Below are positions 1 through 22,654 of a DNA stretch of 49,792 nt, in pieces (the first letter of the stretch is position 1; the number at the start of each line of letters is the position of its first letter). The notes below the pieces were generated by a model, which was given only the letters and a program-made list of their open reading frames with translations, was not told the DNA's origin and made no database searches. The position numbers and the translations under genes are program-made. Origin of the DNA: Cyanophora paradoxa CCMP329. Lineage: Eukaryota > Plantae > Glaucophyta. The stretch spans positions 1 to 49,792 of the forward strand of contig QPMI01000076.1 in assembly GCA_004431415.1 (NCBI GenBank), read 5' to 3'.

Positions 1-1
1 C

Positions 2-1581
2 GCCATACCGCGCACGTACCAGAGCGCGCAGAAATCGCCGCCAATCTGCTACCGCTGCCTTCGCCTATGTACGAAGCCACGCCCGTGCGAGCGCCAAGGG
101 GCCAACACGCCAGAGAAAATCGCCGCGAGGGAGGCAGCGCAGGCGAGGAAGGATGCCGTGTACGAAGAGTACGTCGCGGTCATAGAGAAGGCAAACGCGT
201 GGGCGGCCAAGCAAAACGGCAAGGGAAAGAAAAAGGGCCAGGAGCCGTACCCCCTCATCAAGGACAAGAAGCCGGCGCAGTGCCCACGGTGTCGCCCAGA
301 AACTCGTGGCTCTGCAGAAGTGCGTCACGCTGCTCGGCAACAAGGGCCTGCTCGTGATCTTGGGCTGCAGAGGCGAAAGAGGGGCGACACGGCCACCGTC
401 TCCAAGCAGACGCGCGACCACATGGTCGAGAGCGTGCTCGGCGGCCGAAGCCAAAGACCACGAAAAGGCAAAGGATACGGCCGCTGACTTCGGATCGTCC
501 GTCATCGAGCCCAACTCTGCGCAGTCGAAAATCAGAAAGGCGAAAATCGTGGCGCCGAGCATGGAAGATTTAATGGCAACCTTCGCGGACGCGCAAGAGG
601 TAAAGCAGAACATAGAGAAGGCGAAAACGGACTGCAGGCGGCGCAGGCAAACGGGCTGGAGGCGCTCGAGAAGGTGATCACGGAAATCAGCGAGACGGGG
701 CGGTCGGTCTTCATCCTCAACAAAAAGAATCCCGACGGAAGCACGCGGTACGACATACGACAGGCGCGCCAGTCGCGCTACTGGGTGCTCTTCAACACCC
801 ACAAGCGCCTGGGAGAGGCGCGGAATTCGAGGCGGCGGCGCTGCGCGACAGCCTCGCAGAGGTGCTCTCGGATGCAGAATTCTACAAGTTCATACGCTTC
901 AATATGAAGGAAGAGAACGGCAAGTACAAGGACGACACGTACGCCAACGCAATCATCGGAATTCGCGTGCAAGGGGGCGTGGAGGTGGGGCCGACGGACG
1001 GCGCGCTGCACGCCCACGTGCTGGTGACGATCGATCACATATCGAATTTGCAGGTGCTGTGGGCGAATTACGACTGGGTGGTGCTGCTGAAGGAGAAGGA
1101 GCCGAGCACCACGACGGTGTACGAGCGGCTGCACCAAATTCTGTCCGCGAAATTCACGGCGGCGGGGCAGCGCCTCGTAGACCAGAAGAGGCAGAGGCAG
1201 GGCCTCAACCGAGCATCGATACGATGGTGGAAATCGCAGAGCTCGAGCGCATGCTGACGGAAGAGAAGATAGGCATGGGAAAGATCCGCCCACCGTCCTT
1301 GCGTCGCTGATCCAGAGGAAAATTACGCGAGCAAGCTGCAGGAGTACCTCTCAAAGACGCTGCCCGACAAGCAGAGGCGCGATTTACTGAAAGAGTGGTC
1401 GCACGCGCGAAACACGAACAACACCGACAACAACACGGACGGGTACCTCTTCACGATTTTCCAGGCGGACGCCGGCCAGGCGGACGATCCCCGCTTCGCG
1501 CCGCAGGCCGCGGAAATCGGCGACCTGAGGGCCAGGGCCGAGGGCGCGGCAAAGGCAAGGGGCGCGGAAGGGAAGGGGTAG
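2..1581 (+). CDS. HUH-superfamily rolling-circle endonuclease (Rep-like), frameshifted and 5'-truncated; the N-terminal part with a CxxC-x2-C-x5-C motif may be a separate gene
   Basis: Motif I-like YWVLFNT (779-799), motif II EVGPTDGALHAHVLV (HAH at 1009-1017), motif III NYASKLQEYLSK (two YxxK, 1321-1356), stop TAG 1579-1581. The ORF-track pieces join by single-base shifts. Confidence 0.75.
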
Positions 1582-1610
1582 CGGATAATAAATCTGACGG
1601 GCCCGCGAAA

Positions 1611-1878
1611 ATGTTCCAGGGGGAATGCACCCACTCGGACATCATCACCGTCGTCTGCGGCGCGCTCTTCCTGGTCTCGGAGCTGCTGGGCGGCACGGAG
1701 CGCGTCGGCCCCAACACAGTGCTGGGCGCCCTGAAGGCGGCGGCCCTTAGGGTCGTCCGCCGCGGACAGCCCGAGCCCGAACCCCCACCGGAGCAGCAGA
1801 GGCGCGAGAGCACGCAGAACATAGGGCCGCACCACGTCGACATTCAGATGACGCAAACCGGTACCCGTTTTTTTCTAG
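1611..1878 (+). CDS. Small viral protein with hydrophobic N-terminal segment (putative membrane protein)
   Basis: AAAATG start with promoter motif; IITVVCGALFLVSELLGG segment. The stop is either TAG 1876-1878 (needs one indel in the T-run) or 1982. Confidence 0.55.
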
Positions 1879-1890
1879 AGAACATGGGAA

Positions 1891-2240
1891 ATGGAGACTC
1901 CCGCGACACCAGCCCCCAGCGCAGAGGCTCCAGCGCCCAGCAACTCCAGCAGCAGCACCGCGGCCTACCCTTGGCTTCTTAGGACTTACGCGCGAAAGAA
2001 GCAGCAGCAGCCGAAGGCACCGGCGGAAATGGCGGCTGACCTGGATCGGTGCACCCGCCGCGCCATCGCGAGCTACGCCAAGCGCGTCGAGCAGTACCAC
2101 CCCAGATGGCAGAGGACGCCCGGGCGTACGCGAAGAACCCCGCCGCGAGCCCGCCCGTGATGGCCGCCGTCATCGACCGGCTGCAGTGGGCGCTGCACGA
2201 GGAGGGAGAGCGCGTCAGGAATTTCTTCATGCCCAAGTAA
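1891..2240 (+). CDS. Hypothetical viral protein (~116 aa, one frameshift near 2100)
   Basis: Promoter motif plus AAATG; ORFs 1891-2160 and 2049-2240 join at a C-run (YHP|QMAEDARAY). Confidence 0.6.
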
Positions 2241-2262
2241 ATTTCTGAATGGGCCCTTAACA

Positions 2263-2450
2263 ATGTCGTCCATGCTCCGAGCCTCGATGATATCACCAGC
2301 GATTCCCGCTACCTGGGCAGCCTGCTGACCCTCGGCGCGGTCGCCTACATGTCGCCCGCGCGCTACTACCTCGTGCGGATCCTCGCCGCGCAGTTCGCGG
2401 GCTACTACTTCGTGGGGCCCTACCTCCTCAACGGCCTGAGGAAGGCATAA
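2263..2450 (+). CDS. Small putative membrane protein (~62 aa), missing from the ORF track
   Basis: Promoter motif plus ACAATG; MSSML(P)SLDDITSDSRYLGSLLTLGAVAYMSPARYYLVRILAAQFAGYYFVGPYLLNGLRKA* after restoring one C near 2277. Confidence 0.6.
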
Positions 2451-2473
2451 TTTCTCAGGCCCCTTCCTAAATA

Positions 2474-2922
2474 ATGTCCTGCGTCAACCTCTACGTCCAG
2501 TCGAACGGAGAGACGCAGGATTCCGAGGGCTTCTGGCGCCTCAGGCTGAACCAGATCCCCGCCGACATCGACACGCTGCAGATCAAGGGCGTCTACCTGG
2601 AGCTGGACACGACCGCGATTCCGGACCCCACCGCCGCGAAAACCGTCAACGTTCTGCTGATGGACGTGCCCGACTTGAACGTCACGACCATCTCGAACGT
2701 CAACACGTGCATCAACAAGGTCGTGATCCCGACGTGGGGCCACGACGGCCTCGAGAACACCATCCTCTACTGGTTCGAGTGCCCATGGCCGTGCGCCCGA
2801 ACTACGTCGCGTACGACAAGTTCCAGGAGCTGCGCGTGCGCTTCACCGACATCACGGGCGCCACCAAGAAGAACAACGCCTTCATCGTCAAGAACTTCGG
2901 CCTCTGGGCCTTTGCTAAATAG
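2474..2922 (+). CDS. Putative single jelly-roll minor capsid (penton-like) protein, ~150 aa
   Basis: Alternating beta pattern; N-terminal VNLYVQS...FWRLRL and C-terminal ELRVRFTDITG...FGLW resemble penton proteins of PLV/virophage/NCLDV-type viruses; frameshift at the C-run near 2785. Pattern recognition only. Confidence 0.55.
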
Positions 2923-2942
2923 ATTTTCGCATGCCCCCTTAA

Positions 2943-3419
2943 ATGCGCCTGATCATATTCCCGCGAAAGGGCTCGGGCGTCAAGACGCGCACCTTTACGG
3001 GCGTGCCTGGCTACCCCTCGCCCCTCACTTACAGAGTCGATCTTGTAACCGCCTCTGGTCCAATTAAATACGGGCTGCTGCACAGCCTCAGTCACATCCG
3101 TCTCGGCGAGAGCGCATGGCAGGACTTGGCCTTAATCGTAGAATTCGAGTACAGGGGGGTAGACACGCTAACGGGCGATCACTTTTACAGGGTGCGGGTA
3201 GCAAGGGAGGGGTACTCGCTGCCGAACGGCACGGGCGGGGAATACTGGGAGCCGAAAATACGCGATGCCTCCGAGGCCTACCGCTGGCTGCGCGACGAGC
3301 AGATCACTATCAGGCCCGATTACCCCTACGCCGACGTTTTCTGGCAGGTGCCGGTGGGCCAGTGGACAACGGGCGAGGTGAGCGGCAAGCTGAAGTGGAC
3401 GTGGGACGCGGAGCATTAG
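2943..3419 (+). CDS. Hypothetical viral protein (158 aa, beta-rich)
   Basis: Intact ORF, TAAATG start with promoter motif, complex aromatic-rich sequence. Confidence 0.7.
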   Translation: MRLIIFPRKGSGVKTRTFTGVPGYPSPLTYRVDLVTASGPIKYGLLHSLSHIRLGESAWQDLALIVEFEYRGVDTLTGDHFYRVRVAREGYSLPNGTGGEYWEPKIRDASEAYRWLRDEQITIRPDYPYADVFWQVPVGQWTTGEVSGKLKWTWDAEH

Positions 3420-3444
3420 TTAATTTTTCTCTCTCGCGGATAAA

Positions 3445-6400
3445 ATGTCGATGCTCGACGACCCCTGGCGCATGGCCATCCCGAATCCGGACGAGGTGCT
3501 GAACGGTGCCTTCGCGATAGACGGGAGCCTGAGCGTGAGGGGAATTTACGCGGATGAGATAAGGCTGCGCAAGGGCGCGACCTACAGCGATTTCCTGACG
3601 TCCGTCGGTACCTTGGACGATTACGGTGACCTCACCGCAATTATCAAGGGGCTCTGGGGCGTCACGACCGAGACGGGCGTGGACTGGAACATTATTAAGA
3701 GGGCGGCCGACGTGAAAATCGCAAACTCCGTTACAGCGAAAGACGCCACCCTGAACCTCGTGAAACTGACTCTAAAGGGCGCAGAGGGGGACGTGAGGCC
3801 CGGGTACAACGCACTCGAGCGCATCGCGGGCCCCTGCGCCACATCTACTGGAGCCGCCAGGCGCTGCCGAGCATGGAGCCCGAGCAGTACAGGCGCGACA
3901 GGGAGGAGTTTTTCGCGTGGTTCGACCACTTCAAGGTGAACATCCGCGCCCTGAGCGCCGACAGGACGGGCGAGACGCCGGAGACGACGGGCGGGGGCCG
4001 CATCCCAACGGCACCCGACGTGCTCCCCGATCGCTCAGACTGGGCGAAGACGCAGAACTGGGCGCTGAAGGACCACTTCCACGACGAGAGGTACGCCCTC
4101 GTCAAGCACCCGCATGTGAAGGCCGACATCACGGACTGGGCGCACCGCCACCTGTACGACGACATCATCGGCGGGCCCAAGGTGCCGGGCGCGATTCCGG
4201 GTGGGGGTACGGGCGGCGGAAGCACGGGAGGTGGGGGTACAGGCACCGGGGTGGGGGTACAGGCACCGGGGTGGGGTACAGGCACGGGGGGCGGAGGGGG
4301 CTCCAGTGGCACGCCCGTGGGGGGGGCGGGGGTAGCAGCGGCTCGGGTGGCGGCGGCTCGGGCGGAGAGAGCGGCGGAGGGGGTACGCTCGTGCCGATCC
4401 TTGGTACAACAACGGGAATCTTCGGCGCGGCCCTGATTGCAGGCGGTGCAAAGTACTACAGGGATCGGAAGGCGTACGAAAGGGACATTGCAGAGCTGCA
4501 GAAAGATAACAAAACGATCGTTTACTCAGACGAGCAGGTGAGAATACTGGCAGAGGAGCTGAAGACAAGGGAGCGGCAATTTAACGAAATGAGGACAGCG
4601 GCCGAGAAAAAGATAGCGGACGATTTGAAAGAGGCGAGCGATAGAATTGAGAAATCCCTGGAGGCCGAGGAGAAAGCCGAGATCCGGAAGAGAGAGGCCG
4701 ATAGGATCGTGGAAAACGCGATAAGGGAGGCAAAGGAGCAGGCAAGGACCGAGCTGGAGAAACTGGACATGGAAATAGCAAACAAGGTCAACATAGCAAA
4801 CGAGGTCGAAGAGGGCACAAAGATGCTGGACGATGAGCGAAAGGCAGCGGAGGAGCAAGCCAGAAAAGCAAAGGAGGATTTAAGGCAGCTCGAACTGCGA
4901 GAACAGGAGAGGCAGAAGGCAGAGGGGCTCGCATCCACCATACGATTCAACCTAGAGCAGCAAGTGAAAACGCTGACGGCCGAGCTGCAGAGGATAGGGA
5001 CGGCTGTGCCAAGGGGCACAATGGAGACGCAGACGACGCCAAGGCCCGATCCAAGGCCGGCCGCCGAGAGGCTGCCCTTCGCGCGGCTGGGTAGGAGCGA
5101 CCAGGTGGAAGAGCTCATTGGCCTCACGCTCGAGGATCAGAGGGCCCTCTTCGACGCGTTAGAGCAGCGGCGCAGGGCGGACGAGGAGGCAGCTGCCAAG
5201 ACAGAAGAGGAACGACTGAAGGCAATGCAAACTGCATCAGACGAGGAATTTGCACGGCTGGAGGAGCCGAAGGTAGCGGAGCGTAAGCGACGACTGGAGA
5301 CGTTCAGGGGGGCGCAGATGGATTTTTACCGCTCGGAGCTCAAAAGACTGAAAGAAGGAAATGCATCGGGGGACAGGCTCCGCGCCATGGAAGAGAACAT
5401 GCGCGACTTTAGCTACGTTATGGATCAGCTGACGGGAAGGGGTCAGAAAGACGCCGAAGAACTGAGGAGAAAGATGGCCGATGAGAAGTGGAAAAACTTT
5501 GAGCGTCAGGCTGTTCAGAGGCCCATCAGCGATGCCATCTGGATAGCATACGGCGACGCGGAGGAGATGCACCGCGAACTGCGGACGGAAGTGAGCCTAT
5601 GGCGGGGAGCCCTCGAATGGTCACTGTACCGGATGCAAAAGGGAAAGTTTGTGGCAGAGCTGCGAGCCAATCCGAAAACGACGAGCATCGGCGCACAGGA
5701 CGCGTACGTCGGCATGATCAATTACGTGGAGAAGCTGAGCAAGTTTTGGGAAAAGCGAAGAGCCGTCATTCCAGCGGAGGGGCTTGCACAGTACGACGCC
5801 ATGGTGCGCGATCTGGAGGCCTTTAAACGTGAGCATCCACCCGCCAAATACAAGCTTTACATAGATACAACGGCGTTCATAGGCGAACTAAGGAAGAGAG
5901 GAGACGAGGCCAAGAGTCAGATCGAGGAGCGCTACAGAAAGGCCCAAGCGGACAAGGAGTACGCAAACAGGGTGATCGAAGAGCGGAAGCAGCAAGCCAA
6001 GGAGAACGCGGCGAGACGCAACGCCGAGATAGAAGAGCAGAGGCGGAAGATCGCAGAGCGCAAGGCGGCAGAGGAAGAGGCAAGAAAGACCAAGGTAGAG
6101 ACAGAGTACCAAGCATTGAAACGGGAGGCCAATCAACTGTTAAAAAGGAGGGGAAGGGCCTACGCCGACGAGGGCGCGGGCGTGGGCTCGGCCAGCCCGG
6201 ACGACATCACCCTCGCGGAAAGGGACGACGTTTCCGTAGAGGAAATGCGCCCGGGCACAGCTCGCCTGCCCTCCGAGGGCGTATTCCAGACGCTCGACAG
6301 GCGCGTGATGGGCGACTCGGACGTTATTTTGCGCAACGCCCTCATGCCCTACGGCGACTGGAACCGCGCCACCGCCGACGCCCTTGCCGATTTCGACCTC

Positions 6401-8836
6401 GAGCGATTCACCACCAAAGAGCAGCGCGACGCCTTCCTGGGGCGCCGAGGGCAAGGCGGCCCGGGGTGGCCAAGGAGGCCCTCAGCGCCGAGACGCTCTT
6501 CTCGCGGCGGGTACGGCGAACAACGACGGCATGTCTTTCGGGGCAGCCGATTTATTTCAGGGGCGGGCATCGACTTGGTGGGCGCCGGGCTGGGGGTACG
6601 GGCTCGCGGGCCATGCGGCGGGCGGGCGCGGCGGCGGCGGCCTTGGACTGGCGACGGCGGGGGGTCTGCTCTCGGCCTACCAGGCGCTCTCGCAGGGCAA
6701 GATAGGGGAGGCGGAGTTCTTCGATACGTTCCGCGATCAGATGATCATGACGGTCGGCTCCTTTGGCCTGCAGACGGGCATGTCGTCCGCCCTGAGCGCC
6801 CTCACGAAAATGAGGATCGGCACGGTGGGCGGACTTGGCCTGTCCATCCTCGCGGGCGCCATCGCGCAGGTGATCGTAGATATCATCAACGGGCGCAGCG
6901 CGGAAGAGATCGTGAAGAACTTTTTCAAGTACCCCGTCGACTGGGCGGCCGACACCATCCAGTTCATTGCGCAGCTCTCGCAGCAGATCTACGACTGGGG
7001 CGTCGAGACGTGGGGCGACGAGGCGAGCCAGCTGCGCAACCGAATTAATCGGCTGGAGGGCGAGCTGGGCTCCGGATTTTTGGGCGTGTACGACCCCTCG
7101 GAGGCGCGCGAAATGGCCTCGCTCTTGGCCCAGGAGCTGCGGTTAAACGAAATAAAGGAGCCGAAGGAGCTGCAGGCCTTCATTCGCGCGCTCGACAACA
7201 GCATCAACGATTACCGTACCCCCAAGGACCAGAAGACTCTGCTCGAAATCGATCGCGCGACCGTGCTCTTCCTCTCCCAGCTCACCGTTAAAATGCAGGA
7301 GGGATTCGGGTCGACCTCGCTCGCCCTGAGTCGGCTGATGCGCGATTTAAAGCAGATGGTGAAGGAGGAGACCAAGGGGAGGAAGCGCGTATTAATTGCC
7401 GTCTACCAGGAGGGCCTCAACAGGATCAATCACATCGAAGCCCTAAGGCGCGAATTCGGCTCGGCCATCCGCCACTCGGGCGTCTCGTCCAACGGAGGGG
7501 CGCAGGTGGCCCGCCTGGCCGACGCCAACTCGCGCCTCGAAATCCCCGGTACCTTCCGCATGCAGGATTGGTGGGAGGCCGAGGCATTCAGGAACTACGG
7601 CGCCTTCATAGACAACGGGATTAATTCGCAGAGCCCCAAGGCAAACTGGCTGGTACCCAAGGCGTACGTCGATAAATTGATGGACAGGCCCGCGGCGCCG
7701 TACAGGAAAGAGGTGGCCAAGGGCGTCGAGTACTGGGCACCCTCGGCCCTGCAGCCCGTGTTTGCGGCGCAGAACTACGAGTGGCACATGGCGCCGGGGG
7801 CGAGCCAGGCGGTAAGCACCGTGGGCGTGATCGGACCACAGCTGGCGACGGTGGCGCACACAGGTGAGTACGGAGACTTAAAAGGGAAGCCGACGATACC
7901 GACGGTGCCAACCACGTGGGCGTGGGATAGCATCACGGGGAAGCCAGCGGAAGTAAACGCAGCGCAGCTCGAGTACCCCGTGGCGCAGCCCGTCAGCACC
8001 GTGGGTGTAGTACAGCCCCGCCTTGCGACGGTTGCGTACACTGGTGCCTTTGCAGATTTGAGCGGCAGGGGGCACACGCACTCGCTCTCAGAGATAAGGG
8101 ACTGGGCGGGGGCGCCCGACCTGTCAGGGTACGCCCTCTCGACCCACAACCACGAAGGCGTGTACGCGACGGCGGGGCACAATCACGAGGGGGTATACGC
8201 CCCCTTCACCCACAGCCACAGCCAGTATGCGCTCGCAACCTCCTTAGACCCCTTCACGGCGAATCACATCAACTGTCTCACCACTTTGCGCGTTGGAGAC
8301 GGATACGCATGCACGTACGACGTTCGGACGGCCTTTGAGCCAACGGGGTGGAGAGATTACGTGCACAGTGCAACGTACGCATGGGCCGCTGACAGCACGT
8401 TGACGAACTTTGAGCAGAACGTAACGTACCCCGTCTTTGCGGAGCAGTGCAAGGGCGACGCGATCTTTAGGAACGTTTACGTGAGGAGCACAGGCGATGC
8501 TCAGAAGGTGCACCGAGTCGTTTCAGCGCAAGAGTGCAACCCGAATGCATATGTTCAACACGGGAAAAAACCACGACCCGCTACCCCGCCGTGGGATGGA
8601 ACAGCTACACGGAGACAATCATCTTCGGTACCTCATACACAAGCGAGCCCACTGTAACGTTTTCGTTTCAACACGGGACAGGGGGGACAGAGGTGAAGGG
8701 ATATTTCGATTACCTTGGCCTCTCCACCTTTAGCGTCTATTACAAAGTGTACAGCGACTACGATTACACGGATCCAGGCACCGGCGGAATAAATGTGACC
8801 CTGCACTGGCAGGCCACCGGGACAATAGCCGCTTGA
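3445..8836 (+). CDS. Giant virion protein (~1,790 aa): Gly linker, hydrophobic helices, long coiled coil (tape-measure-like), phage-tail-fibre repeats, C-terminal gp53/H-type-lectin-like tip
   Basis: ORFs 3445/3873/3917/6384/8534 chain by frameshifts near 3835, 4320, 6450-6540 and 8565 with no intervening promoter motif; LATVAHTGEYGDLKGKP, WDSITGKP, HTHSLSEI and HNHEGVYA x2 repeats; tip IIFGTSYTSEPTV...LHWQATG. Confidence 0.7.
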
Positions 8837-8857
8837 TTTTTCTCAGCCCCTGTAAAA

Positions 8858-9667
8858 ATGTCCGTCGCCGTTCCTCTATTCACCTACGCGGCAAGTGTGA
8901 ACCATGTCAAGGATCACACGATTAAAGAGACGATCCTCGGCTACCAGACCACCGAAACCCCCTACAATGCCACGGCCGTCCCCTTCTCCGAGGCCGACCT
9001 CGTCCGCGTCGGCGAGCTGCGCTGCGATAAGATGCGCACGCGGGAGGGTGGGTCGGCCGTGCCGGGGCGCGTGAAGACGCAGAGGCTCACGGTCACGAAC
9101 GGGGCCTGGGACGGGAGCGGGTACACTACGAATGCTCTGACCTTTAACGGGAGTGCTGATGGAGAGGGGAACGCGGCGATGTACGTGCAGGGAGGGGGTG
9201 CAAATGTGGTTGGGGGGTTGAGAGTGAACGGAAATGTGGTCATTCAAGGCGGATACCTGTACGGCGTCCAAAAACCCTTCTTCTGTGCCGTGCTTGGGGG
9301 TGCACTGAGCACGAGTACAGGTGTAAAACTCACAAACTGGACAAACAATGCTTCGTCGACCTCGTGGAACCCCTCCACCGGTGACTTTACGTGCCCCGTC
9401 ACCGGGTATTATCGGTATACATACACAGGAATTACCGATATCTCTTCCATTCGCACATTTGTGGATCTCGTGGTGGGTTCTGCTATTGTGGCCACAGCTA
9501 CCTCAGATGCAGATCCGGATTTACCGCAATCGTACAAACCGTTGAGCATCAATACTATCGTTTACGTTCCACAAGGACAGACAGTATCTTTGCACCTGAG
9601 AAGTGGTGGCGCCTTGCATGGCGGAAACTACAGTTGCTTCACAGGAGAGCTTGTCAATCCTGCATAA
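8858..9667 (+). CDS. Fibre/spike protein with C-terminal C1q-like domain
   Basis: Shaft-like GGANVVGGLRVNGNVVIQGG followed by PFFCA...WNPSTGDFTCPVTGYYRYT...GQTVSL...SCFTGELV, the C1q/TNF-like signature. Confidence 0.8.
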   Translation: MSVAVPLFTYAASVNHVKDHTIKETILGYQTTETPYNATAVPFSEADLVRVGELRCDKMRTREGGSAVPGRVKTQRLTVTNGAWDGSGYTTNALTFNGSADGEGNAAMYVQGGGANVVGGLRVNGNVVIQGGYLYGVQKPFFCAVLGGALSTSTGVKLTNWTNNASSTSWNPSTGDFTCPVTGYYRYTYTGITDISSIRTFVDLVVGSAIVATATSDADPDLPQSYKPLSINTIVYVPQGQTVSLHLRSGGALHGGNYSCFTGELVNPA

Positions 9668-9670
9668 CAG

Positions 9671-11602
9671 TTACGTGAATCCCCATTTGTATCGAATGTA
9701 GCTAAAGATAAGGTCACGCTCCGATGATGCGAGTGGTCGATCGTAGATGAGCAGCTCGGCCATATCACCTATGTAACGAGTATTGATATCATAGCCACGG
9801 TGCCAGAATGTCATCGAGTTTGCGGTAGGGGTGGCAGAGGCGGATCGGTAAGTGCCTTGCAAATACCAAGCACTCGTGCTGCCCACCGAGTGGAAAGAAT
9901 ACAGCCACGTGTTCAGGAATGAGGTCGATGAGATAGCCGTCATGCTGGTATCGAGCTCGAGTTTGGTATCAGAGCGGTACCACAGCATTGGAGTATCAAC
10001 GGAGGAATCGTATATGTTCCTATACGCACCCCCACTTGGGCCAGTCGGTTTTGTTACCACGATGAACGTCCCACCAGAGGCGTTAAATGGCCCAACGGCA
10101 GCTGTCGGGACCAGCAGCTGGGTACCATTGAAGGAAACAACAGAGCGCCCGTTGCGAGTAAGGGTGCGAGTAGGGGCCCCGTGACCAGCCACTTGACCGA
10201 AGTGGTTGCCATTGGGGCTCTTGTCCCGCCACTGGACGACATTGGAACTCGACAGTGTAAATGTCGTTGTATCCGAAGCGTCCAGCATCAAAACCAGCCC
10301 CGATGCCACCGGCGGGGCTGAGGCGGACGTGGGAGTGATAGCCGACGAATTCGACGCCGGGCCCTCCTCACCCACAATGTTGACGGCCTTCACATAGTAT
10401 GTGTTAACCACAAAGGACGATGCAGTGGTGTCCGTGTATGGGCTCGTAACATTATGCCCAATCTCCTCTGTCCCTCTGTACACGTTGTAGGAGGTGGCCA
10501 CGCCAACTGCAGGGGGGGTCCAGGTGATGGCAACGCTGGGAGAATCCGACGAGGGTTGTGAAGTGGAGATTGAGGCCGGTGCTGCCGGATCTGTGGTGAC
10601 GTGAATGCCCACGCTCTTCAGTCCCTCTCCTGCCGAGTTCGTCGCGGAGACCTGGTACTCGTACCCCGTACCCCAGACCGTGGTGGCATCGCTGTAGGAG
10701 TTGGTCGCGGAGTCTGCGAGGTAGGCCCCGTCCCTGTAGATCTTGTACCCCGTCGCCCCCGTGGGCGCCGTCCAGCTGAGGCTAACGGGCTGCTGCTGAT
10801 CGTCGGGTGCCGTCGCCGTCAGGCTCGTGGGGGCGTTTGGTATAGTCCAGACCGGGAGCGGATCGGACTTTTCGTATTCAAACCCGCCCACGATACCGGC
10901 CACCTGGTAGGAGTACTCCGTACCCCACGTGAGGGCAGTGCTATCGTCAATGTACGAGGTAGATAGTCCGCTGCTCGCAAATCCGATGGGGGTACCGTCC
11001 CTGTAAATTCGAATCGAGTCCGCGCCCTCCATGGCCACCCAGTTGATTGTGACAACAAAGGTGGGCTTCGGGAAGCCCGCAGACGCAGGGCCGCCCCCTG
11101 CGATAAAATCGCCGTAGGTCTGGGCCGTGGCGGTCGTGAGCGCAGTGTACGCCTCGATCGTGGGCGTGGAGCCGCCTATGCCTTGGAATTGAATGTAATT
11201 GCTCCTCGCGCCCTCGTGGGTGTAGAGCAGCGACTGTGCGTACGTGGTGGGGGGCACTTTGCCGTCCGAGCCTGTGCTGCTGCTGCCCTGCTCGCGAACC
11301 GCAGCCACCCGGTAGAGTCGGAGCTCGCCGAAATTAAAGGGCGAGTTCGTGTATGTGAGCGTGGGTGCGTTCACCGTGGCCACCAGCGTCCAGGTGCCGT
11401 TGAGGCTCGGTGCCCTATACACATTGTACTTGACGGCGTCGGTGACGGCGACCCAATTCATTTGAAATCCAAAGGTACCGCCCCCATTGTTGAGCACTGA
11501 GCCCGATCGGATCTGGGGCCTGCCCACCGTGAGCGAGATCGGCTCCACGCCATACTGCGGCGCCTGCACCACCTGCTTCTTCACGAATACGAAGCGGGGC
11601 AT
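9671..11602 (-). CDS. Fibronectin type III repeat protein with C-terminal LamG/concanavalin-like domain
   Basis: About four Fn3-like units (e.g. LSWTAPTGATGYKIYRDG...YEYQVSATNSAGEG); C-terminal SGLVLMLDASD...WRDKSPNGNH...GDMAELLIYDRPL...YIRYKWG. Confidence 0.85.
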   Translation of the reverse strand: MPRFVFVKKQVVQAPQYGVEPISLTVGRPQIRSGSVLNNGGGTFGFQMNWVAVTDAVKYNVYRAPSLNGTWTLVATVNAPTLTYTNSPFNFGELRLYRVAAVREQGSSSTGSDGKVPPTTYAQSLLYTHEGARSNYIQFQGIGGSTPTIEAYTALTTATAQTYGDFIAGGGPASAGFPKPTFVVTINWVAMEGADSIRIYRDGTPIGFASSGLSTSYIDDSTALTWGTEYSYQVAGIVGGFEYEKSDPLPVWTIPNAPTSLTATAPDDQQQPVSLSWTAPTGATGYKIYRDGAYLADSATNSYSDATTVWGTGYEYQVSATNSAGEGLKSVGIHVTTDPAAPASISTSQPSSDSPSVAITWTPPAVGVATSYNVYRGTEEIGHNVTSPYTDTTASSFVVNTYYVKAVNIVGEEGPASNSSAITPTSASAPPVASGLVLMLDASDTTTFTLSSSNVVQWRDKSPNGNHFGQVAGHGAPTRTLTRNGRSVVSFNGTQLLVPTAAVGPFNASGGTFIVVTKPTGPSGGAYRNIYDSSVDTPMLWYRSDTKLELDTSMTAISSTSFLNTWLYSFHSVGSTSAWYLQGTYRSASATPTANSMTFWHRGYDINTRYIGDMAELLIYDRPLASSERDLIFSYIRYKWGFT

Positions 11603-11641
11603 GTTCCTCTACGATCCGAAAAAATATCTGCGCCGGGGTAA
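11603..11641. promoter_or_regulatory. Bidirectional viral promoter (39 bp) with two back-to-back copies of the element-wide motif
   Basis: Plus strand AAAAAATATCT-N12-ATG (11642); minus strand TTTTTTCG-N14-ATG (11602); both use the same A/T run. Confidence 0.7.
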
Positions 11642-12322
11642 ATGACTTCCAACTGGTACCAGACCCTCAGCGGCTCACTTGACGTTGGCAACAACACCAA
11701 GGATTTCGCGCGCATCCCCTCCGGCAGTTACGTCGACGTCTTTCTGCAAAATCCCGTCGTGATTCAGGTCGTTCAGAACGCCTACGCCACGCCCAAGATT
11801 TACTCCTATCAGCTCTTCTTCGACCCTTTGAGCCTCAGCGCAGAGGTCATCGAGCTGCTGCACGAATCCGGCCTCGTGAAAAAGGTGGCGCCGGCGACAG
11901 CCACGGCCAACGTCCTGCGCTGTTTGGAAGTTAAGTTCAGGGAGACGGGGTACGGCCCCACCGTGAACCAGTACACCAGTACCGACCTGCCGGGGACGGG
12001 TGCGTATACGGCGCGGGGTACGCTCAAGGGCGACGTGCTCTTCACAAAATTCAATCCGAGTCCCGCCACCCTGGGGGCCCTCTACACGGGCGGCAACCCG
12101 CGCGCTTCCGGGTTACCCCGCTTTCCCTTCACCTTTTTCAAGTTTCAGGTCTTCCCCCTCTCCTACGCCGCCGACCAGCCCCACTTCAGCACGGGCGCGA
12201 GCCTCTGCGCGGAGCTGCGCGAGTGCTCGATTTCCTACAGGCACACCACTGGCTCCGACGCCGTGCAGCCCGCGGCCCGCATCTCGGGCATCGGCAACGA
12301 CATCGCCCTCTTCTACGGATAA
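11642..12322 (+). CDS. Hypothetical viral protein, paralog A of tandem pair
   Basis: Intact 226-aa ORF with promoter motif; several blocks align with the next gene. Confidence 0.75.
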   Translation: MTSNWYQTLSGSLDVGNNTKDFARIPSGSYVDVFLQNPVVIQVVQNAYATPKIYSYQLFFDPLSLSAEVIELLHESGLVKKVAPATATANVLRCLEVKFRETGYGPTVNQYTSTDLPGTGAYTARGTLKGDVLFTKFNPSPATLGALYTGGNPRASGLPRFPFTFFKFQVFPLSYAADQPHFSTGASLCAELRECSISYRHTTGSDAVQPAARISGIGNDIALFYG

Positions 12323-12345
12323 TCTTTCTCATTCGAGATCGCAAA

Positions 12346-13122
12346 ATGCCGACCACCTCGGCCACCATCGTGAAGACTGTGCTGCCTACCCCCGATTTCT
12401 ACGGCGACACCGCAGCGGCCAACGCTGGGACGGATTCCGTGGTCTGGGACGGCAATTACGCCTCCATGCTGACCGTGAAAATCCAGAATCCCGTCATGCT
12501 GCGCGTCACCTCCAACGATTTCGAGAATCCCGCCTCCTGCTCCGTGTACGTGTACTTTGACATCGACTCGGGCGTGAGCGCGGACGAGGCGGAGGCCCTC
12601 TGGCTCTCGGGCCTGTTAAAAAAGATAGAGCCCTCCGTGCCAGATCGGCCGCGATTCGCGTGCTCGAGCTCAAGTTCACTGCAACACCGCCCTCACCCGC
12701 ACTTCAACGGCGGCACCAAGACCCACATAGACGGCGCCCCATCAGCAGCGCACACAAGACAACCAGGCCGTCCCCTTTGAGATGTACAACCTCTGGAAGA
12801 TGACCGCAAAGGAGATGATGACGAATGCCACCACGGGCGGAGTCTCGGGTACCTCGTTTTCCTACGATTCCTCGAATCCCCGTACCCAGGTCTGGCCCCG
12901 GCTCCTCTTCACGAAATTCACTTTCAAATTGTACAACAACATTGCGGGTATGCCTACCTCTGGAATGGTCGTGGGTCTACCCTCATGGCCGAGCTGATCG
13001 AGGCGGAGGCTGACTACACGACTGCCACCACCAACCCTGCCAACGGCACCGCTACGAACTACGTGGCCTGGAGCACGATTGACCGCGAGTACGACACTAA
13101 GATCCACACCACTAGCGTCTAG
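12346..13122 (+). CDS. Hypothetical viral protein, paralog B of tandem pair (frameshifted)
   Basis: AAAATG start at 12346 with motif; VKIQNPVML, SGLLKKIEP, NPRTQVWPRLLFTKF match paralog A; stop probably TAG 13120-13122. Confidence 0.65.
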
Positions 13123-13477
13123 ACTGGCTAAGCTGCACTAGCGCCTGTGCCGCCTCCATCATCTCCCGAATCTCCTCGCTCTTCTCCTGTAAGTTGGCGT
13201 ACCCCCTCCTCTTCTTGCGAATCTCCGACATCGATGCCCAGCGCAGGTTCTCCCTCCTGTAGTCCAGCGGGTTGCCGTTGATGTGTTCCACGTAGCGTCC
13301 ACGCGGCGACTTCCCGAGGATCAGCTGGGAGAGGTAGTGCTTGCGCCCTCCGAACGTCTTGCTCACCCTGTCCCTGTCCACTCTCCAGGGAAACTCCAAG
13401 GCACTCGGGGGTACGTCCGAGTTGACCAGGACGTTGTAGGCGACGTCTTGCGAGTCGGTGCACCGGAGCAGGGCCAT
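13112..13477 (-). CDS. HNH endonuclease-like protein (HNH_3 type), possibly inactive
   Basis: YVEHINGNPLDYRRENLRWASMSEI against the family pattern VDHINGxxLDNRRENLRxxTxSEN; promoter motif upstream. Confidence 0.8.
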   Translation of the reverse strand: MALLRCTDSQDVAYNVLVNSDVPPSALEFPWRVDRDRVSKTFGGRKHYLSQLILGKSPRGRYVEHINGNPLDYRRENLRWASMSEIRKKRRGYANLQEKSEEIREMMEAAQALVQLSQSRR

Positions 13478-13498
13478 TTTGCTCTAGGTTCGGAAAAA

Positions 13499-13620
13499 CC
13501 TGGGACTTGGGACTTGGGACTTGGGACTTGGGACTTGGGACTTGGGACTTGGGACTTGGGAAGAGTTGAAACCCAGGTCCCGGCCCAGACTTTCTCCAGG
13601 ATCAGAAATTTGTCAGACAA
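13499..13620 (+). repeat. Telomere-like array 1: (TGGGACT)x8 + TGGG followed by conserved flank AAGAGTT...CCAGACTTTCTC...GGATC
   Basis: Array read directly at 13501-13560; the flank is an imperfect inverted copy of 13935-13990. Confidence 0.95.
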
Positions 13621-13934
13621 GTCAGGTGAGTTTTTCTACCGACTTTTTTACTCCTACCACCCCTCGTACTCTTTTTTACTCGTAGTCTTTTTTACTCGTA
13701 TCCCATCTCGTACCCTCCTTCTCTCGACATCTCGCACGAATACTCCTACCCCTCTTCACATCCTTTTTCGGTTGCATACTCTCGTGAGCTTTCATGTCCA
13801 GTTTCATGCTACAAGTCGTACACCAGTTCAGACTCTACCTCGCTTGAAATCTCACCTGGAATGTCACCAGAAACGTCGTATCCAGAATTCCGTACCCCTT
13901 TCTAAGTCTGCCCGGTGGTTAGGGACTTGGTGCA

Positions 13935-14027
13935 GCAAACTCTCAGATCCAGAGAAAGTCTGGCCCAGACCCTGAGTCTAACTCTTCCCAAGTCCCAAGT
14001 CCCAAGTCCCAAGTCCCAAGTCCCAGG
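13935..14027 (-). repeat. Telomere-like array 2: conserved flank + CCCA(AGTCCCA)x5, inverted relative to array 1
   Basis: Array at 13987-14025; flank GAGAAAGTCTGGCCCAGACCCTGAGTCTAACTCTT. Confidence 0.95.
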
Positions 14028-14108
14028 ATCGCGCCAAGTCGTAACTGAATAGTCGGACAATTTTTACAAGTATGTACAGTGGAATGACGCAATACTATTT
14101 ACAGCATC

Positions 14109-15215
14109 TCAAATCAGAGTCATCATCGGAAACCAAGTCAATCGGTGCATCGGGCGCGGACTTAAGGGAATGCGGGGAAGGGCCTGCGCTGCCTGCACTA
14201 AGTCCTGCCGCTCCTGCTCGCGCTGCGCCGCCAAGGCCGCTGCCGCCTCTGCCTCGCGCCGCTGCTGAGCCTCGACGCGCGCCCTAAGTTCCGCTGCCTC
14301 CTTCTTCTTGCGCTCGGCAATCTTGGCCAGCGTCATCTCGCGACGAAGAAGGCGCTCGTGACGCAACTTGCGCCGGAGTTCGGCCATTTCGCGCTTGGCG
14401 ATGATGCGCTTCTCAATGGTCTTGACGTGCTGAGTCAGGCGCTCGGTGTAGTGTGACGTCACGCGAGAACGGGCAATGCCAGCGCCGATCTTCAAGTCTT
14501 TTTCGTGTTCCTTGGCGGGATTCTTGACTCGCTCGGAGTTGTCGGTGAATGACGTGGTCTCCATGAACTTCTTCTTGACGATTGACTTGGTCTTGATAAT
14601 GCGGCGCTTGCGAGTCGGGTTTTCGTTGTCGCCTTCAGAGTCAGAAGACGACTCAGAGTCGTATGGAATCGGCACGTCAAAGTCGATGAAGTCGTTGATG
14701 TCAGACTCGGCGTCAGAGGCCTCGGACGTGGCGTCATCGGCGGGCTGAGGGGCGGGCTCGGCGACGGGCTGAGGGGCAGATGACGACGATGACGGAGGGG
14801 GTAATTCGTGAAGACTTGCGGGGGTAGGCCCAGGCGAGCGTTTCGGCGGCAGACTCGGCGAAAAGCTTGGGGTCGCCCCAGCCAGTGGGAGTCTTGACCC
14901 AGCCGGGGACGGGGGCACGTCGAGGGCTTGGAGGGGGGCCTTGGTGTTGCGCCAGTACGTGCGGTCCACTCCAGTCGGAATAAGGCAGCTGCAAAAAATG
15001 GAGAAATCAGCCAAAGTCGAGAGGGAAAATCAGAGGGCTCACCGGGGGCCATCGGCCAGGCCTTGTAGCAGGGTGAAGTTGGCGCCTTCTTCTTCTTCGA
15101 GGGGTGTACGAATCTCCCTCGACGACGGCCTCGACGGTTTCGTGAAGGGTACGAGGTAGAGCTCGCCTTCGTACGTCTCGTACTTGTACCGGAGCAGCTG
15201 AGCGCGCCGTTGCAT
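14109..15215 (-). CDS. Spliced gene in the viral terminal region: Pro/Ser-rich, acidic, NLS-like and coiled-coil segments (putative nuclear regulator)
   Basis: Exon 1 15215-15043 (MQRRAQLLRYKYETYEGELYLVPF...DGPR); 54-nt intron 15042-14989 (GTGAGC...GCTGAT...TTTTTTGCAG) containing an in-frame TGA; exon 2 continues in the frame of ORF 14109-15014. Confidence 0.65.
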
Positions 15216-15632
15216 GTCGGGGTAGGCTGTTGTCCGGACTTGTGCAGATTGCGGGCGCGACGAGGTCTATGTCGAGGGCGGGGATAAGGCTGGCATCTGC
15301 GCCAAAGGGAAAATCGTCAGGCAAAGGCAAAACGTGAGGTGACTGTGAGGGCGGACTTGCACGGATTCGGAGAGGCAGAGTTTGCTTGGGCTGAGAGAGG
15401 CGGCGAACCCGTTTCAAGAGTGAGCCAAAATGGCGGCGGACCGCGGTTTTGTGGGTGATTTTTTTCGCGGTCTAGTTCGCAACGGAAAACGTTGCCAACT
15501 GGCCTGAAAAAAGCCAAATTTAGCGTTGGGCCGAAGGCAGAAAAAGGAGCCGGCCTGACGGAAATCGCCCGAGTGCGTCCGCCGAAGGTCGAGTCTCGGA
15601 TGGGGGTACACCCTCAGGGGCCCCCTGGTCCC

Positions 15633-16103
15633 TCACCCTGGTAGTACCCTCTCAAAGGGATTTTCGAAGCCGTACAATTCTTGGTAAGTCTCGTAGTCCG
15701 GGCTGTACCCCCTCACAATCTGCGGGAGCCCCATTGAAAGCCTCCGTCTGTCCTCTCTCAATTCCCTGCGGAAAAGACTGCGGTCGCTTCGAGCTTCGCG
15801 CGTCACGCCAGCTGGGCGTGGTCTATGATTGTTAGGGTTGTCGTAGCCTGGCCCCACCAGCCTCACGAAATTTTCGCGTACGGCCTCGGGGAGACTCTGG
15901 AAACGGCTCGTCGCGTGGAACTCAATCCATTCATTGAATCGACGCGGATATTGACGGATGACTTCAAGCACGCCCTGTGTGTTGGGCTCTGGTGTTATGT
16001 CGGGAATGTCATGTCCTGTGAGGTGCCAACGCCAGAACTCGCGCAGCCTTTCGAATGCCATCTGCAACTCAAAGGGGAAATCGTAATAGAGATTGCCTGA
16101 CAT
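15633..16103 (-). CDS. Hypothetical viral protein (156 aa)
   Basis: Intact ORF with ATTTTCG-N13-ATG promoter motif directly inside array 3. Confidence 0.7.
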   Translation of the reverse strand: MSGNLYYDFPFELQMAFERLREFWRWHLTGHDIPDITPEPNTQGVLEVIRQYPRRFNEWIEFHATSRFQSLPEAVRENFVRLVGPGYDNPNNHRPRPAGVTREARSDRSLFRRELREDRRRLSMGLPQIVRGYSPDYETYQELYGFENPFERVLPG

Positions 16104-16134
16104 TTTTCTCCCCGTCCGAAAATTTCCCCGCTTT

Positions 16135-16216
16135 TGGTCCAGACTCTGATTTTAACTCTTCCCAAGTCCCAAGTCCCAAGTCCCAAGTCCCAAGTCCCAA
16201 GTCCCAAGTCCCAAGT
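16135..16216 (-). repeat. Telomere-like array 3: conserved flank + CCCA(AGTCCCA)x7; direct repeat of array 2 and inverted to array 1
   Basis: Array at 16161-16216; flank TGGTCCAGACTCTGATTTTAACTCTT matches the array 2 flank TGGCCCAGACCCTGAGTCTAACTCTT at 22/26. Confidence 0.95.
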
Positions 16217-16757
16217 TTTCGATCGATTTCACGCGTGAAAACGGCACTTTTCGGCCTTTTCCGATTTTTCCTTTCTCGAGATCGCATTAATGCCCTCGAT
16301 CTCGAAATCGCGATCGAAAATGGTCGCGATCGTGAGAAAGTCGCGATCACCAGGGTCGCGATCGGCTCGTGATCGCCGCGATCGCCAGCCTCGGAGGGGG
16401 TACCCCACAGCTGTTGCGGCGGTTATAAGAACCTCCGCAATCCAAGCGTCACTTCCGAGTCTCGAGCTCTCGGAGTTGACTTTTCGCGTTTGGCCCATTG
16501 ATGGCCCTCGTATATACATGTGCGTGTCTGTATACACGCATATATTTGTACATATGCATGTACAGGTCTTAAAGCGGTCATCGGGCTCTAGATCACGCGA
16601 TCGCCGAGTCGCCCGACACCGAACTGCAATTGCCAAGTTCAAAAATGCGCAGCCGCCGCGGCCTATAGCTACATATATATATACGTACATGCATATGTAC
16701 ATGTAAGCGTGGGGCTAAAGGCTCCCAGCCGCAGGCATATCGAAGACAAAGGCGTCG

Positions 16758-19290
16758 ATGGCAGTGGATGTCAATGGAGGTGCCGCGGAATTCGAAGATG
16801 CAGCGATCCGGGGAGCTCTTTCGTCTCGGGTTGCGCTGTGGGTCGGGACGCTCCTCTCGAAGCACAGCCATGGCCAGGAGGGCGAGGCTCGGAAGTTGAT
16901 TCTTGCCCACCCCGACCTCAAGGCCGTCGGATGCAACATGTGGCTCGAGATGGTGCACCCCGCACGGGGAACGGGATGCTTAATGATGAATCTTATATAT
17001 ATGATAATCCCTCATCGCGTGCTGCAGTATGCCAACGCTCAACAATTCCCAATCACGGACGACACTACGCTCCGTTCCGAGGCGCGCGCCCGCATTCTGT
17101 GCAATCAATCAATTTCTCTCTGCTGATGACGTCAACGAGTAGGAGCTCGAGGCATCCAAAGTCTGGCACGATGATATGATCGAGACGGTACGTATACAAG
17201 ATTGATCGATCGTTTGATCGCCCCGTGATCGACTCGACTTTGACGTACGGGGCCGCCGGGCGCGGCATGCACAGCGGGAGCGGATGAAGGAGACGTCGGC
17301 TGCAGTGGAGGCGGCTCGGGAGGGCGTCGCAGCGGCCCTGGGCGAGGGGCGGGCCGACGAGCTCATCGAGATGCTCCACAGGCGGGAGGACGCTCTGGAC
17401 CTCATTGGCGCCCGGTGCGACGTCCACCTGTGCACGCGCGGACGTCGACGCGCTCCGATGTTCACGAATCGTACCTCATGCTCTGATAATAAGGTCCACT
17501 GCGCTGGATCGCCCCTACCGCGGCTACGGCTGCTCGTCCGCAGAGGCCACTTGGATCGAATCGGGTACGCCAGCGAACTGGCTCGAAAACGAAGTAACCC
17601 CCGTGCCACCGGCGGCCTCTGCCTTCAGCCTTGAGCGTTCCCGCAGCGCGTCCCGGAGGCGATGGGAGACCTTGAGAACGTCACTCGTGAGGTGCATTTA
17701 ATTTGCTCTCAAAATTAGATCTCGACCTATGCGCCTCTCAATTCGAGCACGTCTTCGGCCGCAGGAAGTGCAGGCTCTCGATCTTTCCGTGAAATTTCGG
17801 GCCCTCGAGGCAGACTTGTCTGCGGAGGGAGCCTCGGCCGCACTCTGCTGCGGAGACGTCGACGCCGCTCTGGCCGACCGCCTCCTGTCGCACTACCGCG
17901 CCACACTCGCCTCTGCCGGCGCCGAAGTAGTCTCGGGGGATTCGGTTCGCGTCGACGCGGCCCGCTTGGCCCTCGCCCCCATCGTCTCTTCCTGCGAGGC
18001 GGCCCGGCCTGATACGGTCCGCGAACTCGAGTCCCCGGCCCTAGGCCTTCTCCCCGTGCCTCGCCTTCCCCTCTGACAAGGCGCCTGGCGAGCGCAGACC
18101 CTTTGGATCACAGAGGAGAGCAGGGAGGACGAGCCGACCGCCGTAATTGCCCCCGGGGACCTCGGTGCTGTTCGGGCGGCCCTCGAGGGCTTGGCCCGTG
18201 GCGCGTGGGCGCCGGAGCAGTGCGCTGCCCGCCTCGCACAGCTGCGCGAGGAGTTGATTATCCCACGAAATCCACCTCTGAGCGACGAGGTACACTGCGG
18301 CACGGCCACCCCGGGCAATACCCATGTGCTCATAAGTACTTTGTTTCGCGAATCCTACACGTGACAGTACGTCGACGCTGCCAAAGACGACCTTCTTGCC
18401 GCCATGGAGGAGGTGCAGAAATCAAATTCGGAACAGCTCTAGCGGTCGATCGCGACATATATATCGGAGTTAAAAGCTTAAGGCAGCCCGGGACGGTTTC
18501 CAACAGCAGTTAACGTTGTTTCGCAGCGGTCCGAAGCGCGGGGACTCTTGGAGGGCGCAGTGGCATCTCGCGCGGAGCTTGATGCTGCGACGGATGGGGC
18601 CGCTTCAAAAATCCTCGAAGCACTCGCAGAACACGACGAAGTGCTCGCGCATCTGGCCATACGGTGTGCAGTTGTTCAAAGCCCTTGCCCAGCTTGCTGG
18701 GAAATGTGACATTTGAATCATACGCTTATAAACATTTTTAATGCAGAATTGCCGTGACGGACCCCGAGGTCCTTCGCTTCGCCTGCGCCTTGTTCGAGCC
18801 TGCGGCGGTGCGCATACGCTCTGGAATCCCGATCGATATATGTTCCCGCGGCATCTTTTACCGGTCAAAATCGACACGAGCTCAAGCGGGTATGCGTTCG
18901 CAGGACCCTGCGGAGCGCGGAGCACAGTCCATTGTCGTGAGCGACGAAGTGCTCAATGTGTGCAGGCCTCCCTCCCTCCCTTCGAATTCGCCCCGCCCCC
19001 TTCATACTGCGCGATGTCGACATATTTGACGCGGGTTCTGCAGGCGCACGGTCTCCTTGCGTCTCTGGATCTGGCAGCATCGTCGAGCAACCAAGGGAAT
19101 GGAGATCTAGACTCGGAGCCAGCGCATCGACTGCCGTGCGGGTTGCTTGAGAGGACAAGCGACTTTCTATTGATGCAAAACGTCGTGGTGCGGCGCAAGT
19201 TAATTGGCCTATAGCTATTCCCTTTCGGCGGCCGCCGGGCAGCCAACGCGGGAATGACACCGATGGGGACAGGTGGAGCCCCTTGAAGCT
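16758..19290 (+). CDS. Host multi-exon gene, alpha-helical protein of unknown function (3' end uncertain)
   Basis: Chain of short exons bounded by GT/GC...AG (MAVDVNGG...MWLEM | YANAQQFP... | ELEASKVW... | RERMKETS... | EVQALDLS... | RSEARGLL... | DPAERGAQ...). Confidence 0.55.
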
Positions 19291-21968: not shown

Positions 21969-22322
21969 CACTAGTAAAAAGGGGGTCGCCGGAGCCTGTC
22001 TCAACCTGATTGAAATCAGGCGGAGGCAGGCTGAAAGCAGGCTGAGTCGTCAGCCTGACTGTAGCCTGCTTTCGAATCAGGCTAGCCTGATTCGAAAGCA
22101 GGCTAGCCTGATTAGGAACTCCAGCCAGCACCTAGCCTGATTCTAATATTTTTAATATCCTTTAAGCTTTAAGCCTGATTCAAGCCTGTCTCGGCCTGTT
22201 TAAAATCAGGTTTAGTCCTCCGAAATAAGGCTGAGCCTGTTTCGCCAAGCCTGACTCGGCCTGATTGAAGCCTGTTTCAGATCAGGTTGAGACAGGCCCC
22301 GGCGACCCCCTTTTTACTAGTG
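21969..22322. mobile_element. Non-autonomous CACTA (CMC/EnSpm) element, MITE-sized, 354 bp
   Basis: TIRs CACTAGTAAAAAGGGGGTCGCCGG(A/G)GCCTGTCTCAACCTGAT at both ends; 3-bp TSD CGT (21966-21968 and 22323-22325); many internal AGCCTGA/TCAGGCT subterminal repeats. Confidence 0.95.
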
Positions 22323-22394
22323 CGTGGCCGAGCCTGCCCTCCAGCTGGCCATGCATATGCACCCCGGAGATCCCCGCGCCCGCCGCCAGCGCCG

Positions 22395-22654
22395 CCACCT
22401 GCGATCGAGGACCTCCACGAGGGGGTCGTCGAGCGCCTGCGCGACGCCAGCTGCAGCCTCGCGGACGTCGAAATTCAAGACCTTGTCTACCAGATGCGCG
22501 GCGGGAGCGAACAGCGCGCCAGCCGTGCCGCTCTGCGGGCGCTCGCTGGCTGCCGCTTACCCCCAAAGTTGACTTCCGCCCCGATCCCCTCGAGAAGGCC
22601 TGGATCGACTACGTCTACGGCGAGCCCTCTGCAGACAGCACCATCATCTTTTAG
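22395..22654 (+). pseudogene. Coding-like fragment (IEDLHEGVVERLRDASCSLADVEIQDLVYQMR...DPLEKAWIDYVYG), no clear start
   Basis: Protein-like composition across two overlapping frames joined at a C-run near 22560; may be an orphan exon. Confidence 0.3.

Follow-up and report, generated by a model that had tools for sequence, protein, structure and literature searches.

Right arm of a multi-copy, mriyavirus-like element with twin HUH genes beside single-copy DNA in the glaucophyte Cyanophora paradoxa

Introduction

Mriyaviruses (class Mriyaviricetes) have been proposed as the nearest living relatives of the giant-virus ancestor, with rolling-circle replication that is predicted, not shown (PMC11253617; this and the other papers are cited from the parts of their text available to us). 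They are characterised by genomes of 35-45 kb with no DNA polymerase and no integrase, and a short HUH gene paired with a longer one, HUH_long, is described as a feature of the proposed family Gamadviridae (PMC11253617). An endogenous gamadvirus-like virus, Phaglo-G, has been described in Phaeocystis (10.1101/2022.07.28.501842), whilst a recent preprint interprets Nucleocytoviricota regions without an integrase mostly as accidental insertions, the endogenous forms of mriyaviruses, which lack integrases, among them (10.1101/2025.04.19.649669). For the glaucophyte Cyanophora paradoxa, 366 major capsid protein (MCP) hits are on record, 272 in one cluster and 94 in another (PMC10120064), fibres of Polinton-like viruses (PLVs) of Cyanophora are mentioned in PMC12220804, and the available text of a preprint by Bellas and Sommaruga makes no mention of glaucophytes. 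Here we analyse 49,792 nt of C. paradoxa CCMP329 (contig QPMI01000076.1, assembly GCA_004431415.1; hereafter the window), in which the right arm of a multi-copy virus-like element takes up bases 1 to ~16,500, its left arm lying outside; the 16 kb of the element analysed shows neither a polymerase nor an integrase. An earlier note, made from these letters alone, had taken bases 1..16406 for an integrated mriyavirus-like virus or a new lineage using HUH. We give a probability of roughly 0.6 to this being the right arm of an endogenous mriyavirus of a separate lineage, with a gamadvirus-type HUH pair, HUH rolling-circle replication and, likely, insertion by HUH.

Results

The element exists as dozens of near-identical copies in the C. 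paradoxa genome. Used as a query, the HUH core matched 12 clusters, all made up of EukProt gene models and, in the clusters read, named as C. paradoxa, and genes of the element lie on at least 43 contigs of this alga (a tally from gene models, in which some contigs are possibly redundant or unplaced). Ten full-length HUH_long proteins form two subfamilies, sharing 99.5-100% identity inside the first, 96-99.5% inside the second and 67-70% across the two. Dozens of near-identical, apparently intact copies, young and divided between two subfamilies, would point to insertion that was repeated and recent. The host annotation (e.g. EukProt models P0018, P0011, P0092 and P0101) merges adjacent viral open reading frames (ORFs) and bypasses indels via false introns, and viral genes are therefore filed as algal proteins. 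Scans of viral contigs, metagenome contigs, prokaryote genomes and phage records found no close relatives with genomic context; one viral-contig scan yielded a gamadvirus only, and a degenerate motif scan gave 11 matches, all judged to be chance.

HUH_long occupies 2..1585 on the plus strand and corresponds to residues 144-676 of a 676-aa sister protein, its 5' part being outside the window. A basic N-terminus and a split CxxC...CxxC motif precede a Y1 HUH domain at the C-terminal side, with motifs I, II and III at ~778-810, 975-1030 and 1343-1357, in several frames owing to deletions. Aligned with the sister protein P0022, bases 2-1585 give 518 of 518 identical residues, 15 single-base deletions and zero substitutions, and the intact 676-aa form exists in sister copies. 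Deletions without substitutions are the signature of unpolished long-read error, not of decay, and the breaks in the window's HUH_long are for this reason most likely assembly errors. For neither HUH protein was the single-sequence fold good enough to use (pLDDT 38 and 33), a structure search with one of them was uninformative and sequence searches of the PDB gave no match; in a protein atlas the short HUH has Rep proteins as neighbours (24-26% of members with PF23343; scores 0.93), a lead only.

The second HUH gene, first met as a shorter, different member of the HUH clusters, encodes 280-285 aa and lies upstream of HUH_long, outside the window. HUH_long models are carried by 26 contigs, and on 18 of these the short HUH is adjacent or fused (the next gene number on 16, fused upstream in one model on 2); on the other 8 it was not found by name. 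Judged by gene order and motifs, this short-then-long duplication follows the layout of Gamadviridae. Among 1.84 billion representatives searched there were 28 hits, including three environmental long proteins (611-724 aa) and many short HUHs, and a profile built on those HUHs retrieved 18 IMG/VR loci, 10 of which have a complete short-then-long HUH pair on one strand. Six loci match Gamadviridae representatives from the PMC11253617 supplement exactly in length, and the searchable IMG/VR records matched a capsid of the nucleocytoplasmic large DNA virus type in two of three cases and an A32 ATPase in the one case available. The pair is not universal among gamadvirus-like loci, since four of them (L017, L019, L023 and L029) have a short HUH with no adjoining HUH_long. 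Separately, the environmental proteins P0058/P0098 and P0060/P0063 have longest contigs of equal size (8181 and 4240), hinting that free environmental relatives keep the HUH pair and the penton-like gene together.

Alignment of the Cyanophora-type and gamadvirus HUH_long profiles with hhalign gave a probability of 98.7, covering the HUH domain only, and a CxxC pair stands upstream of the HUH in all 15 long proteins examined (10 gamadvirus, 5 Cyanophora-type), the first CxxC being followed by xR. On this comparison the HUH, with its motifs I-III, is homologous to that of mriyaviruses. Two HUH trees, a check that the earlier note had proposed, were built with 53 and 43 rows and 167 columns (ten short representatives were dropped for the second) on a sampling without verified Yaraviridae or Zora HUHs. 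The Cyanophora-type short and long HUHs form two separate clades with environmental relatives and are excluded from both gamadvirus clades (GamS, support 98; GamL, support 100); the element therefore does not nest inside the sampled gamadviruses.

The genes of the right arm also share a start signal, a T-rich box followed ~20 bases later by AA(A)ATG, which is found at 10 distinct places, 9 being ORF starts. It occurs 0 times in the 33.6-kb flank, against a shuffle mean of 0.7 (a test that is partly circular, because the pattern was derived from these same ORF starts), and 2.2 times per 16 kb in gamadvirus loci. Towards the end of the element, one heptamer forms three arrays, each with a common flank, at ~13,500, 14,000 and 16,180. 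The first two are inverted, share their flank and enclose a pyrimidine-rich spacer (13498..14025), a candidate origin or iteron region, and the third spans 16135..16216. A high-copy terminal region follows (16217..16519), comprising a GATC-rich stretch (46 GATC per kb vs. 5-6 in the coding arm and the flank), a G5-TA-C palindrome at 16396-16406 and then ~110 bases common to other loci; this last part, 16,407-16,519, is either the element end or a preferred target. Telomere-mediated integration was considered: among the motifs listed none was a host telomere motif, and the arrays have an internal position.

Short-read contigs from three DNA-type runs were mapped to 16,225-30,000 using 31-letter words. 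Summed depth in the first bin was 4887, 2575 and 10,017, vs. 40, 47 and 137 in the next; this excess of 55-120 times over the flank marks a high-copy end and gives no copy number. The flank itself (16520..19977) is covered in each run by one 3.5-kb contig with 0 differences at a depth of 35-110. In all three runs this contig starts at 16490 and runs to ~19,970, and given the 31-letter words the shared sequence should therefore end near 16,519. The order of the window is borne out by contig ends at 16,403-16,406, with one extra C that makes a 12-base palindrome; one contig carries a variant before 16,417, and at 16,279 and 16,296 no mapped contig carries the window letter. The words of 13,000-20,000 are present at 0.71-0.74 in 14 of the 24 listed runs, all under one organism label. 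No RNA run was listed among those with this sequence. A run guessed to be RNA (X15) had a word share of 0.19 over 13000-20000 and no depth on 16225-21744, so that by subtraction its words would fall in the element, and it was not counted as evidence of expression. At graph level only, the junction of a high-copy end to single-copy nuclear DNA is supported. The earlier note had also proposed this depth comparison; its junction near 16.2-16.7 kb is kept at that level, and its end at 16406 is moved, since repeated sequence seems to reach ~16,490-16,520.

The right arm is tightly packed to ~16,200 with intron-free, frequently frameshifted reading frames, of which 24 pieces were scanned with Pfam and PHROGs; at cut-off Pfam recognised three of these (C1q, FN3 and HNH). 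Downstream of HUH_long, three small ORFs on the plus strand (1611..2450, starting at 1611, 1891 and 2263), hydrophobic segments in two of them, are likely virion membrane proteins; two of the three were scanned and had no family match. A beta-rich protein at 2474..2922 (+), frameshifted here and an intact 149 aa in sister copies, is a candidate single jelly-roll minor capsid protein, a label that is unproven, and the atlas places it near unnamed small proteins, again as a lead only. On 12 of 17 contigs this penton-like gene has an HUH model at most three gene numbers away, and tig00020936 carries both a published MCP representative (8432-9370; PMC10120064 Table S2) and the penton-like gene g16168. 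A 158-aa ORF of no assigned function from the ORF scan (2943..3419, +) precedes overlapping open frames at 3445..8836 (+), probably one single giant, frameshifted gene, with a glycine-rich stretch, a long coiled coil, a hydrophobic segment, fibre-like repeats and weak PHROG tail-fibre matches (E ~1e-3). Next come a fibre-like protein with a C-terminal C1q domain (8858..9667, +; PF00386, E 4.4e-8) and, on the minus strand, a 643-aa FN3-repeat protein (9671..11602; fn3, E 9.6e-7; PHROG major tail, E 1.7e-21) that is likely a surface adhesin. Two paralogous genes of no assigned function at 11642..13122 (+; 11642-12322 and a frameshifted 12346-~13122) share 31.5% identity over 92 aa (tblastn, E 1.9e-9), and three genes on the minus strand complete the arm: an HNH endonuclease-like ORF (13112..13477; PF13392, E 1.9e-7), a frameshifted acidic/basic coiled-coil gene (14109-~15471) and a 156-aa near-terminal ORF (15633-16103), the last two with no family match.

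Much of what the earlier note had seen in this arm is confirmed: a compact virus-like gene block; a complete HUH motif set, though scattered over several frames by deletions; several fibre proteins (the C1q and FN3-repeat ORFs and the weak matches in the giant ORF); and a promoter motif of its own, subject to the circularity above. No integrase is visible among the 24 pieces, just as it had stated, nor was any polymerase, capsid or ATPase matched there, and no pPolB or RVE was found in the element part within the window. Its penton label is not confirmed, the 149-aa protein having no match to Pfam, PDB-sequence or gamadvirus profiles. New relative to it are the three heptamer arrays, the numerous sister copies and the short HUH gene upstream.

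Beyond the junction, 16757-~19400 holds a single-copy, apparently spliced gene adjoining the element (4 pieces, no Pfam match). At ~20750-21330 there are broken frames with motifs recalling a tyrosine recombinase, possibly a DIRS or Crypton remnant (no Pfam match in the one frame scanned), which the single-copy contig separates from the viral block. A 53-base inverted repeat pair at 21969-22322 suggests a miniature inverted-repeat transposable element, and beside it, at ~22200-23580, a further high-copy element reaches a summed depth of 11,500. The spliced host genes expected further right are present beyond 30 kb: an ABC2_membrane gene (E 1.8e-11) and a TPR_TmcB gene (E 5.8e-6), with short introns by eye.

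Discussion

The reading of the element as an endogenous mriyavirus of a separate lineage builds on the copy family, the HUH pair and its homology, the fibre-type genes, the gene-start motif and the high-copy end beside single-copy DNA. The left arm, outside the window, would encode the double jelly-roll capsid, the packaging ATPase and a helicase. Such a small double-stranded DNA virus would replicate in the nucleus by HUH-initiated rolling circle using the host polymerase, in keeping with the model of PMC11253617 and the basic N-terminus of HUH_long, and virion parts would come from the right arm, whose genes would answer to one common late-type signal. The heptamer arrays and terminal palindrome are candidate binding and nick sites, a role reported for short tandem repeats and hairpins in pMV158-type origins and HUH transposons. 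Insertion may proceed through the same nick-and-join chemistry that copies the element, and copies might be reactivated into particles. We prefer HUH strand transfer over a left-arm integrase or repair-mediated capture because no integrase was seen and none is known in mriyaviruses; taken alone, HUH-driven integration is a tentative proposal, somewhat short of an even chance. A further-reaching and rather unlikely version has a new family-level mriyavirus lineage integrating without an integrase in a glaucophyte, one HUH paralogue replicating and the other, with a zinc-binding, nuclear-targeting N-terminus, inserting at a preferred site; if true, an HUH-transposing double-stranded DNA provirus would stand at the base of the giant-virus phylum.

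Several observations weigh against the mriyavirus reading. Profiles of the N-terminal parts of the two HUH_long groups show no significant match, and the proteins differ in size (611-724 aa in the Cyanophora type vs. 1591-2114 aa in gamadviruses). The clade of all short HUHs, supported at 94.5/99 in the first tree, has only 70 in the second; the long-HUH clade is unsupported and independent duplication is not rejected (p-AU 0.13). Eleven conserved gamadvirus families, labelled in this analysis from position and pattern, found no match among 964 six-frame pieces of the window, the profiles being shallow, and the 149-aa protein reached a probability of 0.5 with no alignment against the gamadvirus minor-capsid-like family. 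No MCP, ATPase, VLTF or helicase was seen in the right arm analysed, and none of the listed contigs spans the junction with 31 bases to each side, nor was a spanning read seen. To these is added the frequency of HUH in another kind of virus, the Zora/VC218-type groups, where it occurs in 28% to ~50% of genomes and RVE in 57-62% (bioRxiv 10.64898/2026.06.19.733378).

The element could accordingly be a PLV of that type with an acquired HUH pair and an RVE or tyrosine-recombinase integrase in the left arm, which we regard as the strongest competitor, though an improbable one. Replication and capsid modules are frequently swapped, no window gene besides HUH matched gamadviruses, the two clusters of the alga's MCP hits are treated as PLV-type (PMC10120064), and an efficient integrase fits many young copies. 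However, the short-then-long duplication is described for Gamadviridae (PMC11253617) and is matched here in order and motifs, and a preprint puts glaucophyte elements in the Mriyaviricetes MCP tree (10.1101/2025.04.19.649669).

Far less probable is a free or episomal virus of the culture misassembled onto host DNA. The element is full of indels beside an error-free flank, no spanning read was seen and environmental relatives exist, but such a contrast in indels is expected where polishing with short reads breaks down in repeats. In three DNA-type runs one and the same base begins the single-copy contig beside the high-copy end, contig ends at 16403-16406 fit the window order, 14 runs contain more of the 13000-20000 words (0.71-0.74) than the flank alone could supply, and at least 43 contigs carry gene models of the element. 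About equally improbable is a capsid-less HUH transposon or dead relic with leftover structural genes. HUH proteins are the transposases of IS91, Helitrons and Replitrons (PMC10288648), no capsid was seen and the window genes are frameshifted; against this, the breaks are deletions without substitutions, intact copies exist, ~12 kb of structural-type genes with a common start motif is retained, and the Replitron motifs (GYxxK, second His replaced) are absent, with no Replitrons found in glaucophytes in the part of that survey available.

For the mriyavirus reading, what the earlier note proposed therefore stands in part. An integrated mriyavirus-like virus or new HUH lineage is favoured by the HUH homology, the tandem pair and the adjoining single-copy DNA; the HUH by itself does not settle membership of Mriyaviricetes, for which MCP, ATPase and VLTF genes are decisive. 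The relationship to Yaraviridae and relatives holds as a link to the mriyavirus HUH, with Gamadviridae, not Yaraviridae, the nearest family and the HUHs falling outside it. The tie to a eukaryotic host is upheld by the adjoining nuclear DNA, and is not new, because Phaglo-G in Phaeocystis and mriyavirus-related regions of Glaucocystophyceae are already in print. Copies in a cultured model alga offer a system for testing HUH nicking, circle formation, integration and reactivation, and for asking why the HUH gene is duplicated.

Among described systems, the proposed Gamadviridae (Pleurochrysis endemic viruses and Phaglo-G; PMC11253617) are the most similar, with homologous Y1 HUH domains, a short HUH followed by an HUH_long with a C-terminal domain and a CxxC pair, and an algal host; Phaglo-G is GC-rich with short tandem repeats on its flanks (10.1101/2022.07.28.501842). 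In contrast, the element has an HUH_long of roughly one third that length, the trees put its two HUH domains outside the gamadvirus clades, none of the other window genes matched, its fibre genes follow the HUH pair and there are dozens of young chromosomal copies. The PEV_22-type minor capsid protein and other Gamadviridae-specific proteins had no match in the window with shallow profiles, and packaging ATPase, VLTF2/VLTF3, RuvC, SF2/SF3 helicase and Mriya_48/50/51 were likewise not detected in it, most of these sitting upstream of the HUH in gamadvirus loci. For Yaraviridae, the HUH_long column is 0 in the table rows available (PMC11253617), whereas the element has both HUHs. Mriyaviricetes-related embedded regions in a Glaucocystophyceae assembly (10.1101/2025.04.19.649669, Fig. 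5f) share host class and virus class and may well be this same family; the available main text of that preprint names neither HUH nor Cyanophora. Zoravirus (VC102), VC218 and VC134, compared by description only, also carry an HUH and a mriyavirus-related capsid module, but usually have an RVE or tyrosine-recombinase integrase, and HUH duplication is not described in the available text (bioRxiv 10.64898/2026.06.19.733378). Replitrons, Helitrons and IS91 share copy-and-paste insertion by HUH and terminal palindromes or short repeats (PMC10288648), but have no virion genes, and the catalytic signatures of Replitrons are absent from the element, whose HUH keeps both His and has no GY before the catalytic Tyr. 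We found no paper on this twin-HUH family, or on a virus of this kind integrating by HUH, in a literature coverage that is incomplete and excludes preprint supplements. The apparent novelty lies in an amplified twin-HUH lineage, young and compact, in which no integrase was seen, which allows HUH-driven integration to be tested in a cultured alga.

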